64,000 nt of DNA from Roseburia hominis (GTDB lineage: Bacteria; Bacillota_I; Bacilli_A; RFN20; CAG-826): contig CAVIFQ010000009.1 in NCBI GenBank assembly GCA_963642055.1, forward strand, positions 1,322-65,321, in the 5' to 3' direction. Position numbers and translations under genes: made by a program. Every line of letters starts with the position of its first letter. Positions within the stretch are counted from its first letter, which is position 1. Below are positions 2,552 through 55,178 of the stretch, one piece after another. The notes below the pieces were generated by a model that searched no databases, was not told where the DNA came from, and saw only the letters and a program-made list of their open reading frames with translations.

Positions 2552-3754
2552 TTAGGAGCGCTTCTTCCCTTTGATGTCGCACAAGAAAAGGCTAATGAGC
2601 ATGAGACAGGGGAAGATGATCGCGCATAAAACGCCCATCCTTAAATCGCCGCCGAAGGTCTCGGAGAGTAAACCGGCGAGAGTCGGCCCAGCCGAGCAGC
2701 CGATATCGCCCGCTAAAGCGAGCATCGCAAATAGGACCGTCCCGCCGTTTTTGATGGTCGAGGAGGCTTTGCTGAAGCTCCCTGGCCAAAGAATACCGAC
2801 AGAGAAGCCGCAGATGGCGCAGCCTACTAGGCTGATCCAAGGCACGGGCACTAAAGCGATAAGTAGATATGATCCTATGCATAGACCAGCGCTGATTTTC
2901 ATGAAGAGACTCAGATTCATCCGCTCGCCGAATTTGCCGTATATGAGTCTGGCTGTCCCCATCAAAATGGCAAAAGCCATGGGGCCAGTGAGGTCGCCGA
3001 TGGTTTTTGAGACTCCCAAACCTTGCTCAGCGAAAGTGGAAGCCCATTGGCTCACGGCTTGCTCACTCGCGCCAGAGGCTACCATCATGAGCATCAATAC
3101 CCAAAAGATCGGCGTTTTGGCTAAGTCGAGGAAACTCGCGCCTTTCTCGCCTTCTTCGATAACCGGATATATAGGGACGAAAATGAAAAGAACCATATTC
3201 AGAAGGGGAAAAGCAGCCCAGATAAGGGCTAGAACCCTCCAGTTATTTATCCCGCATACGGCGAAGAAAATGGTCGATAACAATACAACTCCGACATGCC
3301 CCCAGCAGTAGAAAGAGTGGAGGAGGCTCATCGCTTTCTCTTTGTTTTCGGAAGGGCAGGCTTCCACAATCGGGCTCAGCAAAACCTCGATCAAGCCGCC
3401 GCCAATCGCGTAAATGATGACGGAGATGAGAATGCCGACGAAAGCATTAGGCAATAAATCAGGTAGGAACGTCAAACAAGCGAGGCCTGCTGCGGCGGAG
3501 ACGTGCGCGATGATGACCGAGGTCCGGTAGCCGATCTTATCGACGAAAAGGGCCGAAGTCATATCAATCAATAGCTGTATCAGGAAATTGATGGTGATGA
3601 GGAGAGTTATGCTCGCTAAATGGATACTATAAGTCGACTGAAAAGTGACGAAGAGCAAAGGCACGAAATTATTGACGATCGCTTGCACGATATAGCCGAT
3701 GAAGCAGGCGTTAATCGTCGCTTTCGGATTGGTTCTCAAGCTTGTTTTCTCCAC
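2552..3754 (-). CDS. MFS transporter
   Basis: 400 aa, about 12 predicted TM helices. Loop motif after TM2 (DKIGYRTSVI) typical of the major facilitator superfamily. Confidence 0.8.
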   Translation of the reverse strand: MEKTSLRTNPKATINACFIGYIVQAIVNNFVPLLFVTFQSTYSIHLASITLLITINFLIQLLIDMTSALFVDKIGYRTSVIIAHVSAAAGLACLTFLPDLLPNAFVGILISVIIYAIGGGLIEVLLSPIVEACPSENKEKAMSLLHSFYCWGHVGVVLLSTIFFAVCGINNWRVLALIWAAFPLLNMVLFIFVPIYPVIEEGEKGASFLDLAKTPIFWVLMLMMVASGASEQAVSQWASTFAEQGLGVSKTIGDLTGPMAFAILMGTARLIYGKFGERMNLSLFMKISAGLCIGSYLLIALVPVPWISLVGCAICGFSVGILWPGSFSKASSTIKNGGTVLFAMLALAGDIGCSAGPTLAGLLSETFGGDLRMGVLCAIIFPCLMLISLFLCDIKGKKRS

Positions 3755-33733: not shown

Positions 33734-33763
33734 TTGATATTCGCGCGGGGGGGGGCGCATACT
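33734..33763 (+). promoter_or_regulatory. candidate promoter with a G9 homopolymer in the spacer
   Basis: TTGATA (33734-39), spacer of about 18 nt containing GGGGGGGGG (about 33747-33755), then CATACT. About 50 nt upstream of the SPFH operon ATG. Confidence 0.45.
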
Positions 33764-33812: not shown

Positions 33813-34862
33813 ATGCTAGAGGTCGTATCATTCGCAGCCAAACACGACGACGATTGGCTGGTTTACCGCTTTCCCGATGATGATTTCAACTCGCGGAGCA
33901 AGCTGATTGTCGGTCCAGGGCAAAAGGCCATCTGCGTCCACTTGGGCCAGATCGAGGGCGAATTCAAGCCCGGCGTGACGATCCTTTCGACGGAGAACTA
34001 CCCCTTCCTCAAGAAGTTCGTCAACTCTTTCAATGGCGGGAACGCCTATCCTTTCCAGATATATTTTGTCAATACGACGGTCAATTCGAGCACTGAATGG
34101 TCGACGGGCCAAGCGGTGAGAGTGGATGATCCAGAGACAAAACTCGTGGTGCATCTACGGGCTTATGGCTCTTATATCTTCCGTCTCCGCGACCCGCAGT
34201 TCCTGCTCCAGATGGTGCTGGGCAATATGGAAAGCGGAGATATCGTCAGTTTCGATTATTTCCGCCGCAAATTCGACGATAGGGTTCAGCAATCCGTCGT
34301 CAAGTGTTTGGGGCAACTCGCCCGCGTCGATAAGATACCGGCCCTTGAGATCGCCACCCAAACCGATGTGCTCTCGGAGCGCGTTACCAAAGACGTCGAC
34401 GATTTCTTCAGGAAATACGGCTTCGAGGTCACCGATTTCAATACGGCCTCGATCAATATCCCGGATGAGGATTTCAACGCTCTCAAGGAAGCTCGCGAGT
34501 GGGCTGTCTTAGGGACGAGCCACATCGCCGAGCGTCAACTCGATATCGGCGAATCCTGGTCGAAAAATGAAGGAACGGCTGGGGGAACGGCTGTTGGCAT
34601 GATGGGTCTAGGACTCGGCTTCAATGCCTTCGGCGGCATGATGGGCAATCAGCCAACCGGTTACCCAGGGAACTCACAAGGGTATCCATCCAATCAGCAA
34701 GGGTATCAGCAAAATGTCCAAGGGGCGGCAGCTGGAGCAGCCTCCAGCAATATGGCTGCCGGAGCCACGCCAGGAGCCTACAAATTCTGCCCGAATTGCG
34801 GAACCAAACTCGACGGGAAAGCCAATTTCTGCCCGAACTGCGGAGAAAGGGTAATTAAGTAA
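33813..34862 (+). CDS. SPFH/Band-7-like (YdjI-type) protein with Gly/Gln-rich linker and C-terminal zinc ribbon
   Basis: Start at the ATG (MLEVVSF). LIVGPGQKAICVHLGQIEGEFKPG and YGSYIFRLRDPQFL typical of the YdjI/Band_7_1 family. C-terminal FCPNCGTKLDGKANFCPNCG. Confidence 0.75.
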   Translation: MLEVVSFAAKHDDDWLVYRFPDDDFNSRSKLIVGPGQKAICVHLGQIEGEFKPGVTILSTENYPFLKKFVNSFNGGNAYPFQIYFVNTTVNSSTEWSTGQAVRVDDPETKLVVHLRAYGSYIFRLRDPQFLLQMVLGNMESGDIVSFDYFRRKFDDRVQQSVVKCLGQLARVDKIPALEIATQTDVLSERVTKDVDDFFRKYGFEVTDFNTASINIPDEDFNALKEAREWAVLGTSHIAERQLDIGESWSKNEGTAGGTAVGMMGLGLGFNAFGGMMGNQPTGYPGNSQGYPSNQQGYQQNVQGAAAGAASSNMAAGATPGAYKFCPNCGTKLDGKANFCPNCGERVIK

Positions 34863-49706: not shown

Positions 49707-49882
49707 GTGTGTTGAATCGTGTGTTGCGTCATGTGTTGTTAAGCCAATTAAAAGACTTCGCAAAGAGCAAAAGGTTGGAAAATTCCATTTTTAGGTCATT
49801 TTCAAGGTTGGAAAATTCAAGAAAATGGGCGTTTTCAAGGTTGGAAAATTCAAGAAAAGTGGCCTTTTCGAGGTTGGAAAAG
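49707..49882 (+). repeat. two word arrays: 3 x GTGTGTTG (period 12-13) then 4 x AGGTTGGAAAA(TTCAAGAAAA) (period about 33)
   Basis: Read directly upstream of 49938. Confidence 0.88.
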
Positions 49883-49937
49883 TTGATTGATGATATGAAA
49901 ACAGGCATAATGAGTGAAGAAAAAGGAAGTGAGGCAG

Positions 49938-51263
49938 ATGCTAAAGAGAAAGTTTGAGGCAAAACTAGAAGAATGGCTGAAGAGTGACAAAGTATTGCTC
50001 GTCGATGGGGCTAGACAAGTCGGAAAAAGCTTTTTGATCGACTATTTCTGCAAAAAGCATTTCGCGAATTACGTCCAGATTAACCTCGCTTTGGAAAGCG
50101 GGGCAATCGAGGCTTTCCGCTCCGTGAAAGACGTCGATGGCTTTTTATTGGCAGTCAGTGCCTTTTCATCTTCTCCTCTCGTTCCTAGAGAAACCGTCAT
50201 TTTCATCGATGAGATACAACTTGCGCAGGGTGTTGATTTTCTCACGCTTTCCAAAGGCCTCGCGCTCGATGGGCGTTATCGGTTCATCTTCTCGGGCTCG
50301 TTACTTGGAGTGAATGATTTCACCCCAAGGCTAAATCCGACAGGGTATTTGTACAAAGAGACGATGTATCCTCTCGATTTCGAGGAATTTCTCTACGCGA
50401 ATGGCGTGAATGAAGACGTTATCGCGACTTTGGAATCGTGTTTCAAGGAAAGAAAAGAGGTTCCTTCTTTCATTCACGAAAAGATGATTGATCTCTTCTA
50501 TCTATATCTATTGGTTGGAGGGATGCCAGATGCCGTGAATAGCTTTCTAGCGAGCAATGACCTCCAGACGATGAGAATAGTTTTCAAATCCATCGAATCC
50601 TTCTACCACGACGATATTGCGAAGTACGCCAAAAACGAGGATAAGCCCTACATATTGAGCGCTTACGATTTACTTCCGAGTGAACTGAACAGCAAATCCA
50701 AGCGTTTTATCCTCTCTAAGCGCGGAAATGGGTATTCCCTCAAGCGGAGCGAGAATGACTTCTTGTGGATGAAAGACGCTGGGATCGCCCTACCCGTCTA
50801 TAACGTCGATGAGCCGAAAATACCGCTTTTACTAAGCAAAAACAGCACGCTTTTCAAACTTTTCGCGAATGATGTGGGTTTACTTTCCTACCGCCTTTTC
50901 AATACGGGCGTCGAAAAGAAAATCCTCGCCCACGCAAAAGACATCAATTTTGGGAGTATCTTCGAAAACGCGGTCGCGATGGAATTAAACGCCCACGGCT
51001 TCAAAGATCATTTGTTCTATTTCTCGAGCAAGAAGCAAGGTGAGGTCGATTTCTTGCTTGAATACGAAGGCAAACTGTTGCCGATTGAAGTGAAATCAGG
51101 CAAAGACTACAAACGTCATGTGGCTCTTAACAATCTGCTCTCCAATAAGGAATACGATATTGAAGAAGCCTATATCTTCGGCAACTGCAATCTGGAAAGA
51201 AAAGGCAAGAAGACGTACTTCCCGATTTATATGATCGACTACGTCCGCCAAGAAGAGATTTAG
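49938..51263 (+). CDS. AAA_14-type ATPase with C-terminal PD-(D/E)xK-like motif (DUF4143-type)
   Basis: Start at MLKRKFE. Walker A DGARQVGKSFL, Walker B IFIDEIQ, C-terminal GEVDFLLEYEGKLLPIEVKSGK. Confidence 0.8.
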   Translation: MLKRKFEAKLEEWLKSDKVLLVDGARQVGKSFLIDYFCKKHFANYVQINLALESGAIEAFRSVKDVDGFLLAVSAFSSSPLVPRETVIFIDEIQLAQGVDFLTLSKGLALDGRYRFIFSGSLLGVNDFTPRLNPTGYLYKETMYPLDFEEFLYANGVNEDVIATLESCFKERKEVPSFIHEKMIDLFYLYLLVGGMPDAVNSFLASNDLQTMRIVFKSIESFYHDDIAKYAKNEDKPYILSAYDLLPSELNSKSKRFILSKRGNGYSLKRSENDFLWMKDAGIALPVYNVDEPKIPLLLSKNSTLFKLFANDVGLLSYRLFNTGVEKKILAHAKDINFGSIFENAVAMELNAHGFKDHLFYFSSKKQGEVDFLLEYEGKLLPIEVKSGKDYKRHVALNNLLSNKEYDIEEAYIFGNCNLERKGKKTYFPIYMIDYVRQEEI

Positions 51264-51614
51264 TCTCAATAGCAAAGGCACCCCATGAAGCCCGGGGGAA
51301 TCCCCCAGCTACTGGCGGGGTTCCCCCGGCTGAAGGAAGATTGCCTCTGAGTTAGCGATACTGCCTACATTGGATAAATTTGGAATGTTGTTCATTTTTT
51401 ATCAAAAATACAATTCTGTCTGGTGCCGGCATCCATTTTTTCAATGGCGGCGAAAATTGGCGTCTGCTCCCATAAATGAGGGTATTGAGGCCTTAAAAAT
51501 GCCAAAAACGGCATTTTTGGTATCGAAATCAATCCTAGAGAGAAAAGTGAAACAGGCGCAATTTTGATTTTTGTCGGTCTGACGATAGAGTATTTTTCGT
51601 TCAGGATCATTGCC

Positions 51615-52291
51615 ATGAAAAAGAGCGATCAGAGGAAAAAACATTCGATAATTGCGGGGGGGGGGCCTTACTTTTTGCTAATTTTCTCCTTGCGTCAGTA
51701 GGATTTTCCGCATGGGTAATCCAAACAAGTGTCGAAGCAAAAATCAAGGCAAGCGCCGACGATGTTATAGACCTCAATCAGTACTTTTACTTCCCGGATG
51801 ATCCAACGATTTTTGATTATACGAGTGATGGGCTAGTAAAAGACCACACTGTAGATTTGCAAACATTGGAAGGAATTATCGAGGTTCCATTTCGCATAGA
51901 CACAAAAAAAGGAAGAATCAAAGACCATCTTTCGACAAACGCTACAGGCTTTACTTTGACGACAATCTTAATTGATAAAAACAAGAATTTGGATCTTTTT
52001 TCTGTTTGTTCTATCAATGAGGTTAAATTGGCAATTTCAAACAAGACAAGTAACTTTTCTGATGATGACTATTCCTTGATTTCCTCGTTTAACTCTGTGT
52101 CGAAGAAAGAACTTAATTCAAACTTCCTTTTATCGAATTTTTCTTATATAAAATCTTCTTTGGTCTACTTTTCCACCAGGTATAGTATCACTTTCAACAC
52201 AGCTAATTTTAAAACGGATGTTTACGACAAACTGAGCAACGGCTCTTTTCATTTCGCTTTTAAGGCAGGTGGGATTTTCAATTATGAATAA
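51615..52291 (+). pseudogene. signal-anchored protein gene interrupted by a poly-G frameshift (phase-variable candidate)
   Basis: ATG at 51615 (MKKSDQRKKHSIIAGGG) runs into a stop after the G tract. The +1 frame continues ALLFANFLLASVGFSAWVIQTS... to 52291. The track only reports 51857..52291. Confidence 0.6.
51656..51665 (+). repeat. homopolymeric G tract (about 10 nt)
   Basis: attgcGGGGGGGGGGcctta, counted across the 51660/51661 line break. Confidence 0.85.
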
Positions 52292-55178
52292 CGCCAAGAA
52301 AATCCCTTTGGTCTTGTCAGCGTCGTTCTTAATGTCATATGTTGGCTATGGCGGTTGGGTTTTTAGCGCGTTTAAAGAAATGAGCGAATTTTCTACAAAA
52401 CCGGCACGAAAAGTTTGCTATATTAAAAATTCAAACGGAACCACTTACTATACTTCTTTGGATTACGCGCTTAATGTTGCTTCCGAAAATGGAATTAATG
52501 ATGAGATCTATGTAATTCCACAAGAAGGCACGGAGTTATGCCAACCGGTTGAAATTAGAAAATCGCACACTATAAAAAGCGGCGATTCTTTAAAACTTCC
52601 TTACGATAGTGAGACAACGAAACCAAGCGATTACACTGGAAGCGCGGTAATAGATAGTTCCAACAGCAATGTTAATAGTTATCGAAGAACACTTGTTGAA
52701 ATCTTGGATGGTTCGCAACTGATAATCGAAAGTGGTGCTTCCATGATCATTGGAGGAGTTTTCAACACTAAAGGCGTAACCGGAAAATACACTGAGCTTG
52801 ATTTGGATACGGATTCTTCGATTGTTTGCAGCGGGACAATGGAAGTTTACGGCTATATTAAGGAAAAAAACGGCAAATATTCTTCCAAGACTGATGGCAA
52901 AGAGCTAAACGAAAATGATCAAAACCGTTATATAAATTTTACTTCGACCGGATCGTTGACTTGCCCGTTGGCAATCAAAGATGCGCAATCCGGCGGCGTT
53001 ATGACAAGCCTTAACGACTCGGGGGTATGCCCAACGAATGAATTTAGCATTCAAGCCATCCAAACCTACACAACATTCGAATACGGTTCAAAAGCGGTTG
53101 CCTTGGCACGTATGACTGCCGCTAGCCAGAATATGGAAAGAAGGTGTGGCTTCATTGGAAAGGATGGGCCGACGAGCAGGCCCGCAGAAAATTGCATCTT
53201 TTACCTTCAATCAGGCAGCTCTTTGTCTATGGAATATGTTCCTTCAAAACCTGGGATTACTAATACTGAAGCTGGCACAGACTATTCAAAATTTGTTGTA
53301 AATGGAAAAGTTAATTTAGGGAGTCTTTATTTAGATGTTACTGTCACCACGATTGATACAACCAAATATTATTTTCCGCTATCTTATTTGATGAATTTGT
53401 ACATAGAAAACGGTGCTGAATTTGTTGTCGACCATCAATTTAAAATTTATCCAGGATCATCTTTGTTGATTAAAAATGGCGGCAAACTTAGCCTGAATTC
53501 TGACATGGTGGTCTATACATGCTCGGACTTGGCAAATTTAAATTCTTCTACGTCTTTTATATATCCCGTTTCAAAAATCGGGGCTGATGGAAGATTTATT
53601 GATAATGGGGCTTTCGTGCTTTCCAATCAAGGACATTTTGGAGGAAAAATCAATCATACAAATCCTGGTTATTCATCGATTGACTTTTCAAATGCCGAAT
53701 CAACGAACCTAGCTGCAGTTTCAATAGAAGGAACTACAAAAATAGCCATTAATAAGCAAGCAACTGGCATTTTCAAGACATCTCGCGGTTTTAAAGAAGC
53801 TTTAATTGCTGCAAAACAAATTGCTAGTTCTGCGAAAGAAGGAAGCGTGTTTTATTGGAAGGGTAATTACGAATTAACTGTGAATGTTTCCGTTGAATTG
53901 ACGAAGAAATATGATAATAGCGTATATGGCTATACCATCAGTTATGCCGATGATGCCAATGGCACTAACGCTGCGTTCTTATCCGCGGAAAACTCAACAG
54001 ATATAAAAACTTATCAGGCTAGCAATCAAAAATATATTAGGTTTGCAATCAAACGCACGGCTGGAATACAAGTTGATTTCGGCGACGGAGCAAAAATCGA
54101 AATAGATCAATCCAAATGGTATAAGGTTGGTGATGAAGACATTCGCGTCTATATCACGCCATTCGAGGGTGTTAGCGTAGATATTACCACTACCGGAAAT
54201 AGCGGTGCAGGACATGTTGTGTATACCTTATATGAGTCAGAACAAGAGAATGGGACTTTTGAACAAATCGGGTCTAACAGCACAGGCAAATTAAGCGTTA
54301 ATGTCATTAAAGGTAGATACTTCAAATTCACAACTTATTCACAAAATGGGTATTACTTTACAACGAAAACCGTGTTAAAGAATGGAACGAAAATAGGTGA
54401 GCACGGAAATAACAGCAATCTCGGAAACGATATTGTTTATCTTGCTGATGGTAACTATAAATTTGATTTTGGCTGGAATTTTTGTATTGCAGAATGGACT
54501 AAGGTGCTTCTTGCCGATGGCACCTACAAACAAGCTGGAGAAATCAAGACCGGAGACATGGTCATCTCGTTTAACCATGAGAACGGTAAATTCGAACCTA
54601 ACCGCGTTATCGGGAATGACGACATAAGCAAGCAAGCAGAGACGTATAATGTCGTGCATCTGGAGTTCTCGAACGGCAAATCGACTGATTTTATATATGA
54701 GCATGGATACTTCGACAAGACGCTTAACAAGTATGTGTATCTGCACGAAGACGATTTCGCCGATTATATAAATCACGATTTCGTTTTCTATGAGGACGGG
54801 TCAGTCACTGTGGGAAAATTGATTCGCGGATCAATCAGCAAGATTTTTACAAGGCTGGCGTCTCCCGCAACTGCCAATCATTTGAATTTGATTGTAGATG
54901 ACATGCTCTCAATTGGTGGTGGGCTTGACGGTCTCTTCAATATCTTTGAATACGATCTCGATACCCTTGCTTTCGATAAGGAAAAGATGAATGCCGATAT
55001 CGCCGAATATGGTCTATTGGGATACGAAAGCTTTGAGAAGTACTTCCCAAAGGAGATATACGATTTATTGCCTTGCAAGTATTTGGGTGTCTCTATCGGA
55101 AAAGGTCTCATCACCTGGGATATTTTCGAGGGATATGTCAACAAATGGAAAGACCAGCTACTCGAGAATCTAAAATGA
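52284..55178 (+). CDS. large secreted or anchored protein with C-terminal Hint (Hedgehog/intein-like) domain
   Basis: ATG overlaps the upstream stop (ATGAATAA). N-terminal signal anchor KKIPLVLSASFLMSYVGYGGWVF. Residues about 734-876: CIAEWTKVLLADGTYKQAGEIKTGDMVIS ... IYEHGYF ... ANHLNLIVDDMLS. Confidence 0.75.
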   Translation: MNNAKKIPLVLSASFLMSYVGYGGWVFSAFKEMSEFSTKPARKVCYIKNSNGTTYYTSLDYALNVASENGINDEIYVIPQEGTELCQPVEIRKSHTIKSGDSLKLPYDSETTKPSDYTGSAVIDSSNSNVNSYRRTLVEILDGSQLIIESGASMIIGGVFNTKGVTGKYTELDLDTDSSIVCSGTMEVYGYIKEKNGKYSSKTDGKELNENDQNRYINFTSTGSLTCPLAIKDAQSGGVMTSLNDSGVCPTNEFSIQAIQTYTTFEYGSKAVALARMTAASQNMERRCGFIGKDGPTSRPAENCIFYLQSGSSLSMEYVPSKPGITNTEAGTDYSKFVVNGKVNLGSLYLDVTVTTIDTTKYYFPLSYLMNLYIENGAEFVVDHQFKIYPGSSLLIKNGGKLSLNSDMVVYTCSDLANLNSSTSFIYPVSKIGADGRFIDNGAFVLSNQGHFGGKINHTNPGYSSIDFSNAESTNLAAVSIEGTTKIAINKQATGIFKTSRGFKEALIAAKQIASSAKEGSVFYWKGNYELTVNVSVELTKKYDNSVYGYTISYADDANGTNAAFLSAENSTDIKTYQASNQKYIRFAIKRTAGIQVDFGDGAKIEIDQSKWYKVGDEDIRVYITPFEGVSVDITTTGNSGAGHVVYTLYESEQENGTFEQIGSNSTGKLSVNVIKGRYFKFTTYSQNGYYFTTKTVLKNGTKIGEHGNNSNLGNDIVYLADGNYKFDFGWNFCIAEWTKVLLADGTYKQAGEIKTGDMVISFNHENGKFEPNRVIGNDDISKQAETYNVVHLEFSNGKSTDFIYEHGYFDKTLNKYVYLHEDDFADYINHDFVFYEDGSVTVGKLIRGSISKIFTRLASPATANHLNLIVDDMLSIGGGLDGLFNIFEYDLDTLAFDKEKMNADIAEYGLLGYESFEKYFPKEIYDLLPCKYLGVSIGKGLITWDIFEGYVNKWKDQLLENLK

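Follow-up and report, generated by a model that had tools for sequence, protein, structure and literature searches.

A poly-G tract in the signal-anchor codons of a two-gene module as a probable phase-variation switch in gut Bacilli

Why would a gene for a secreted protein carry ten consecutive G in its signal-anchor codons, at a length that closes its own reading frame? This question is raised by a 64,000-nucleotide stretch of DNA (hereafter, the window) from contig CAVIFQ010000009.1 of assembly GCA_963642055.1, in which a small gene starting at ATG 51615 overlaps the start of a large gene encoding a protein of 964 aa. An earlier note, made from the letters alone, had described a G10 tract in the small gene followed by a stop after 28 codons, and had proposed either phase variation or a homopolymer error. 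We find that the tract is exactly ten G long and that the frame does stop where the note placed it. Taking into account the comparisons presented below, we consider it likely that the tract is a slipped-strand contingency repeat of the type known from pilC and vaa, which would switch a two-gene surface module by frameshift and which, in the window, would be OFF and need a single +1 slip to turn ON.

A tract of this kind exceeds what chance would give. By a first-order Markov estimate, around 0.03 runs of G or C of at least 10 are expected per 64 kb. The window contains only two G/C runs of at least 7, the G10 and a G9 further upstream, and both lie at the 5' ends of genes.

Regarding the anatomy of the small gene (coordinates in Table 1), the AGGA lies 8 bases 5' of the ATG, which is followed by 13 codons (MKKSDQRKKHSII) and then GCG. 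The tract falls on the border of the charged n-region with the hydrophobic core of a signal anchor. With the length as given, the frame reads MKKSDQRKKHSIIAGGGPYFLLIFSLRQ and ends in ...AGGGPYFLLIFSLRQ. The note had also claimed that one more G or two fewer would rescue the gene, and this holds: one additional G gives an open reading frame (ORF) of 225 aa and the loss of two G one of 224 aa, with a shared TAA stop at 52289-52291. The loss of a single G leaves the frame closed. The body that these lengths join to the ATG encodes first what is left of the signal anchor (...ALLFANFLLASVGFSAWVI), with a likely cleavage region (QTSVEA/K) after it, and then ~170 aa that form a beta-sandwich domain. 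Judged by inspection, the restored N-terminus consists of MKKSDQRKKH, ~23 hydrophobic residues and then VEA/K (ASA/E in relatives). The earliest start codon in the frame of the body is TTG 51857, so the G10 allele cannot make a product with a signal sequence.

We compared the tract across assembled loci of relatives. The repaired small protein matches 27 other protein clusters at 47-65% identity, most of them full length (~227 aa), and several of the homologues have gene calls that begin late or with MRGG. Three of the fetched loci came from genomes or metagenome-assembled genomes, 17 from human-gut metagenomes, one from the closest relative (L021) and seven from oddly started gene calls. The record labels among them include Candidatus Enteromonas sp. 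(L003), 'Bacillales bacterium' and 'Escherichia coli ... cleanbin', the last presumably a mislabelled bin. A homopolymer is present at the homologous codons in every locus, either as a pure run of G7-G10, as a TnGn run (T6G5 to T9G6) or in a short or interrupted form (T3G4, GGAGGGG). Counting the window together with the 27 related loci (n = 28), 16 are in frame, 11 are out of frame at the tract and one, L015, is in frame with a nonsense codon. The earlier note had suggested a comparison across isolates; carried out here on related loci, it yields lengths of 7, 8, 9 and 10 in both ON and OFF frames. The allele ATTTGC-Gn-TTACTATTT is ON with G9 (L012) and OFF with G7, G8 and G10 (L022-L027), the allele CTTGC-Gn-TATTAC is ON with G8 (L009) and OFF with G9 (L001, L028), and the allele of the window's lineage is ON with G8 (L021) and OFF with G10 (the window).

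Near-identical strains differ in length at the tract and at no other site. Over 7272 bp, L018 and L019 share 99.77% identity, and over 8369 bp, L017 and L019 share 99.1%, in both cases with one indel, at the tract. One identical 189-aa body (P0014) is found behind G10 in one sample (L022) and behind G7 in two others (L023, L024). None of the 11 OFF loci has lost its body ORF, which stays open for 207-210 codons, and in the four OFF loci whose sequence reaches far enough (the window, L001, L016 and L019) the large ORF is also complete. These observations, together with the retention of the tract in distant members of the family (see below), support the note's reading of the tract as phase-variable.

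As for the start of the small gene, 24 of the 28 loci keep the MKK... beginning. Of the others, L002, L003 and L011 begin at a TTG (LK[RK]F...) and L008 lacks a start. In the CTTGC-G9 type of OFF allele, the other frame is opened by a TTG that lies two bases 5' of the ATG (L001 around 5950; P0115, P0122 and P0143). Gene callers thus report proteins starting MHEEETFIEEILIAKACGG..., with an acidic N-terminus that is unlikely to act as an export signal, and this is a source of misannotation.

One could argue that the length in the window is an assembly or sequencing error, that the true tract is G11 or G8, and that the gene is intact. G runs of 10 are error-prone on most platforms, and the small gene is a single base away from an in-frame length. 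However, the window contains seven A7, A8 or T7 runs within long ORFs, all of them in frame, and no other gene appears broken; a generally error-prone assembly was discarded on these grounds. Besides, relatives that were assembled independently show out-of-frame lengths more than once: two runs give G8 (L026, L027) and two assemblies give G7 (L023, L024). Given the in-frame A/T runs and this recurrence, a homopolymer error is less likely, and we regard it as an unlikely explanation; even if G10 were wrong in the window, the locus would still be length-variable among relatives. An alternative genetic code or in-frame stops were also discarded as the cause, since the chains of ORFs in the same frame are separate genes with their own starts, and the large ORF is open under table 11, which fits the window.

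The tract extends to the whole family of the small protein. A profile search of 1.84 billion representatives retrieved 161 clusters at an E value of 1e-3 or better, which define a family of ~200-240 aa with a hallmark signal anchor ending in [SI][VI]GF[SA]SW. Ten family gene calls start with M(R)GG exactly at the tract. Two distant members (profile E values of 2e-29 and 3e-4 for the pair) carry G10 (L033) and G9 (L034) at the same codons, both in frame, and both have the overlapping downstream gene, which measures 807 aa in L034 and runs off the contig in L033. Across 185.8 kb of fetched related loci there are 15 G/C runs of at least 8, and all of them fall at two places: 12 at this site and three at the second, promoter-like tract described below.

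Such conservation could also arise if Gly-Gly-Gly were wanted in the signal peptide and the indels were a side effect, with no adaptive switching. GG is indeed common at the boundary of the n- and h-regions, where it occurs in 58 of the 139 members with a full N-terminus (GGG in 23), and a recent review cautions against calling every indel-prone run phase-variable (PMC11868660). Glycine can, however, be encoded without a homopolymer, GGG making up 22% of the Gly codons in the long ORFs of the window, yet every pure-G allele that we fetched uses GGG runs. Other alleles swap Gly for Phe, Trp or Leu and keep a TnGn run. Because the homopolymer stays where the encoded residues change (GGG, FFGG, FWG, FLG), the run itself, and not the Gly motif, is what is maintained. 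We consider a merely mutation-prone tract quite improbable, and the comparison of sequences indicates that the repeat is maintained by selection rather than by chance.

A different possibility is that the tract works as a dimmer, with RNA-polymerase slippage or ribosomal frameshifting on the G run restoring the frame in some molecules. Transcriptional slippage on long homopolymers is well established, mostly for A/T runs. Pure G tracts of at least 7 give 6 ON and 9 OFF loci, near the 1:2 ratio expected without selection on frame, a point in favor of a dimmer. Against this, 16 of the 20 loci in the untargeted subset are in frame, where one third would be expected (binomial 2.5e-5, uncorrected for relatedness). 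Moreover, interrupted or short tracts are always in frame (L002, L003, L005, L011), which suggests that the frame of the DNA matters. A dimmer is, in our opinion, hardly probable. Finally, a fixed pseudogene, in which the frameshift is a permanent loss and the tract just the site of the break, would account for the closed frame and has parallels in relatives (in L015 the small gene has a nonsense codon and the large one is frameshifted, and in L010 and L004 the large gene has nonsense codons), but it is very improbable in the light of the 207 open codons past the tract and the intact 964-codon gene downstream in the window, of the 11 OFF loci that are all broken at the tract and nowhere else, and of the conservation of the tract in very distant members. 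The nonsense codons (around 6195 in L010, 1476 in L004 and 4166 in L015) are changes of GAG, GAA or CAG to TAG or TAA, and that of L004, on a contig of 2.7x coverage, is a possible error. Since point nonsense mutations are found in relatives, irreversible loss of the module also occurs in the family.

Hence we favor a contingency switch, which would work as follows. At in-frame lengths (G8 or G11 in the window), translation from ATG 51615 would run through the signal anchor into the beta-sandwich protein of ~170 aa. The last codons of the small gene would then provide the ribosome-binding site of the 964-aa exported protein, whose start they overlap. At G10, and also at G9, translation would end after 28 codons and no exportable small protein would be made. 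The OFF state would probably also lower the expression of the large gene, through the loss of coupling and a leader of 590 nt left untranslated.

The junction between both genes fits this scheme. The earlier note had pointed out that the stop of the small gene overlaps the downstream gene, and the overlap (ATG 52284 within ATGAATAA) is real and conserved: an ATGnnTAA start/stop overlap is present in 28 of 28 loci, as are a GGAGG, GGGGG or GGTGG 9-11 nt 5' of the ATG of the large gene and a small-gene 3' end encoding K-[AV]-G-G-[I/V/S/D]-F-.... Judging from this arrangement, translational coupling of the large gene to the small one is plausible. In L002, the final Gly-Gly codons of the small gene make up a G7 run (3573-3579); this run is G6 in L001 and L011 and interrupted elsewhere. 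The G7 of L002 shifts the last residues to KAGGDF* and abolishes the start/stop overlap with the large gene.

Several points weigh against a contingency switch or narrow its reach. Seven of the 11 OFF loci had been picked for their truncated-looking gene calls, and the overall ON:OFF ratio is biased because these seven targeted loci are all OFF by choice; to this we must add the near-neutral ratio of the pure G tracts given above. Several related contigs are, going by their names, of low coverage (2.7-8x). A conspecific copy of the exact allele of the window was not found among the relatives searched, where the nearest small protein is 65% identical (P0014) and most homologues are 57-64% identical. 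Lastly, the large gene has its own Shine-Dalgarno-like sequence and is possibly expressed when the small gene is OFF, so that the extent to which the switch would control it is inferred.

The features of the locus are collected in Table 1. The candidate promoter of the module matches the consensus at 8 of 12 positions, below the threshold of our promoter scan, which is why the scan does not list it.

Table 1. Positions of the features discussed in the text, numbered from the first letter of the window.
Feature	Position	Strand	Remarks
Candidate promoter, TTGATT–16-nt spacer–TAGAGT	51564-51591	+	Read from sequence; conserved in the closest relative (L021); tentative
Shine-Dalgarno-like AGGA and start ATG of the small gene	51603-51606 and 51615-51617	+	
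G10 homopolymer (candidate switch)	51656-51665	+	Codons 14-17 of the small gene; encodes a Gly run
TAG stop of the G10 (OFF) frame	51699-51701	+	After 28 codons
Body of the small gene	51666-52291	+	207 open codons past the tract; frame joined to the ATG by G11 or G8
Gene junction	52267-52291	+	Shine-Dalgarno-like AGGTGGG (52267-52273) in the last codons of the small gene, and ATGAATAA overlap (52284-52291)
Large gene, 964 aa	52284-55178	+	N-terminal signal anchor (…SYVGYGGWVF), beta-rich ectodomain, Hint domain, helical tail
A7 run in the large gene	52864-52870	+	At the conserved YGYIKEK motif; in frame here; second slippery site
C-terminal module of the large protein	54483-55175	+	Predicted Hint fold from Cys734 (codon 54483-54485) plus helical tail of ~80 aa
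Second poly-G tract, G9	33747-33755		In promoter-like spacer TTGATA–18 nt–CATACT, 58 nt 5' of gene 33813-34862

What does the large gene encode? The AlphaFold2 (AF2) model of its product has a mean pLDDT of 77.7 and consists of a beta-rich ectodomain followed by a compact beta domain (residues ~725 to 880) and a helical tail. Foldseek searches of the compact domain, where the pLDDT is ~80-90, matched in the PDB 1at0 (hedgehog autoprocessing), 6y75, 1mi8 and 2in0 with E values of 1e-6 to 1e-5 and target TM scores of 0.75-0.81, and the matches include BIL2 and many mini-inteins. Curated profiles stayed below threshold, with an E value of 0.053 for Hom_end_hint (13.9 bits against a cut-off of 32.1) and of 0.056 for the intein model of NCBIfam, and we did not identify by eye a canonical TxxH (block B) or a terminal HN motif in the module. 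The label of 'Hint protein' that the note had used is thus borne out at the level of the predicted fold and not by the Pfam and NCBIfam profiles. According to the model, the large protein carries a C-terminal Hint fold. Cys734, the first residue of the domain, is invariant in the 17 sequences that have the module, and His765, His831 and His866 are likewise invariant. The homologues of the large protein fall into classes of ~970 aa and ~745 aa, neither with Pfam domains. The ~745-aa class (P0052-P0063) stops just short of the Hint Cys and has no Hint-plus-tail module, which is therefore optional. The alignments of the ectodomain to pilus adhesins (PitA, SpaC) were poor, long and of high rmsd, and we did not rely on them to name it.

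By comparing the window with its closest relative, L021, we found that conserved and replaced parts alternate along the locus. The flanking DNA is 93-98% identical, and the identity is 89-98% over the flanks, the 5' end of the small gene and the Hint-plus-tail module. In the large protein, residues 734-964 are 90% identical and residues 1-411 only 25%; the small proteins share 58%. The variable span runs from 51832 to 54482, covers the mature small protein and the ectodomain at 25-57% identity, and has its 3' boundary at Cys734. The locus is thus a mosaic, because the promoter, signal region, tract and Hint tail are conserved while the exposed parts are replaced. Judged by these identities, it looks like cassette replacement between conserved ends, a pattern that is expected of surface proteins under diversifying selection.

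The large gene contains a slippery site of its own, the A7 run. In relatives, this run is A7 in L005 and A6 in L010, and A7 in L014 and A6 in L015, and the large gene is frameshifted in L005/L008 and in L015. It may be, as far as these lengths indicate, an independent second switch acting on the large protein.

How could these parts work together? By analogy with hedgehog, the Hint domain would cleave at Cys734 and transfer the hypervariable ectodomain to the membrane or to a nucleophile of a partner, much as hedgehog is transferred to cholesterol, with the small protein as the partner or anchor. The whole would serve gut Bacilli that lack a wall and sortases as a self-contained, family-wide module for surface display, controlled by two or three independent switches (G10 in the small gene, A7 in the large one, and cassette replacement). 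We offer this as a speculation that is rather improbable as a whole.

In the AF2 model of the small protein, built from 28 sequences, residues 56-222 form a beta-sandwich with a pLDDT of 80-93, and confidence is low for residues 1-55, the signal region and disordered N-terminus. Searches of Pfam, NCBIfam and PDB sequences with the small protein gave no match, and no Pfam domain or name was found among its homologues. Foldseek matches to beta-sandwich domains of Gram-positive adhesins and pilins were too weak to name the fold (E values above 1e-3, TM scores of 0.3 or less). In our reading, the module would lie at the surface and play an adhesin-like role. Both proteins of the operon end their N-terminal hydrophobic segment alike, with SVGFSAWVI in the small one (51680-51715) and YVGYGGWVF in the large one (52335-52365). 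This similar ending may be a dedicated processing or sorting signal. None of the NCBIfam signal models matches the motif, and a resemblance to SipW/TasA-type signals was set aside since no NCBIfam signal-peptide model matched either protein.

The second poly-G tract, located between TTGATA and a -10-like CATACT, precedes a gene encoding an SPFH/Band_7_1 and zinc-ribbon protein, behind which lie two genes for membrane proteins. At this site, the run is G8 in a conspecific strain (L029, 99% protein identity). Further out, L030 and L031 have G9 with different flanks (relative at 88% identity), and L032 (77%) has no tract. We propose it as a candidate site for transcriptional phase variation or 'volume control'.

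Immediately upstream of the module, the window carries a gene for an AAA_14/DUF4143 ATPase (49914-51263), preceded by tandem repeats coding for units like 'SRLENSRK' (~49709-49900). The stretch 49709-51263 is an insertion relative to L021, directly upstream of the switch operon. In other lineages (L025, L026 and L028), the gene next to the module on its upstream side encodes a tyrosine recombinase (Phage_integrase) or a large serine recombinase, and in L025 and L026 this gene stops ~170 bp short of the small gene. The module may belong to a mobile element or occupy a hot spot of integration. An invertible promoter or shufflon was discarded, as the promoter regions of the window, L026 and L028 have no inverted repeats on their flanks.

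Switches of the repeat-driven kind have been described above all in pathogens (Neisseria, Campylobacter, Helicobacter and mycoplasmas); in gut commensals, most known phase variation involves the invertible promoters of Bacteroides. The pilC tract of Neisseria lies in the region coding for the signal peptide, like the tract of our small gene. As far as the account given in PMC5320596 of the work of Jonsson et al. (1991) goes, the pilC1 and pilC2 genes of N. gonorrhoeae show poly-G translational phase variation with G9-G15. On this description, pilC and our small gene share a poly-G in the 5' coding region of an exported surface-structure protein, on and off frames, and lengths that vary by strain (G9-G15 in pilC, G7-G10 here). 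They differ in that protein and phylum are unrelated, and in that the switch described here would head a two-gene overlapping operon and is read from assembled sequence. In the vaa adhesin of Mycoplasma hominis, a 5' poly-A is ON with 8 residues and OFF with 7 or 9, and the bodies of the gene vary as cassettes (PMC524362). Our locus likewise has a 5' homopolymer in a variable surface-protein gene and a body that looks swapped as cassettes between strains, but the tract is poly-A in vaa and poly-G here, and the small protein is no lipoprotein, since its signal region contains no lipobox Cys. On the side of the hosts, some relatives are in RFN20/CAG-826, and RFN20 is related to Mycoplasmatales; one of them, L003, is labelled Candidatus Enteromonas, which is placed in RFN20/CAG-826 (PMC8035907). 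According to predictions, peptidoglycan is missing from the family CAG-826 and sortases from the order RFN20 (PMC10868615). The window contains no rRNA, and its own lineage would be the one suggested by the titles of related records.

Poly-G/C contingency genes of Campylobacter jejuni and Helicobacter and the 5' poly-A of Listeria inlA (PMC8355987, PMC2831843) offer a further parallel, with G/C or A homopolymers in coding regions or promoters and several loci per genome; the window also has the G9 in a promoter-like spacer and the A7 in the large gene. Rates and phenotypes were measured in those organisms, whereas our observations come from 64 kb of genome sequence. A high rate and reversibility are required for the label of phase-variable according to a review (PMC11868660), and both would hold for the tract in its organism if it acts as we propose. 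Regarding the Hint superfamily (hedgehog, bacterial intein-like (BIL) domains and mini-inteins), the similarity lies in the fold and in an invariant first Cys at the boundary of variable and conserved parts, and, as with BIL domains, the module sits in a secreted, hypervariable protein. In contrast to the superfamily, its profile scores are under threshold (E about 0.05) and there is no extein to splice; its autoprocessing is putative.

In the literature that we searched, no paper connects RFN20, RF39 or Enteromonas to phase variation. What is new for such a switch is the protein family and the host lineage, not the mechanism. We would thus be looking at a repeat-driven switch conserved across an uncharacterised family (161 representative clusters, with no Pfam or NCBIfam model) of uncultured human-gut Bacilli, some of them from RFN20. 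For annotators, it is a reason for caution, as many 'truncated' or oddly started gene calls of the family would be OFF states and not different genes. The length of the tract in metagenomic reads would be a tractable marker for the population dynamics of organisms that cannot be cultured, and the Hint module at the border of variable and conserved parts is a separate lead on the processing of surface proteins without sortases. For the biology of these Bacilli, the switch points to the proteins for which variation is most needed; these probably face host immunity or phages.

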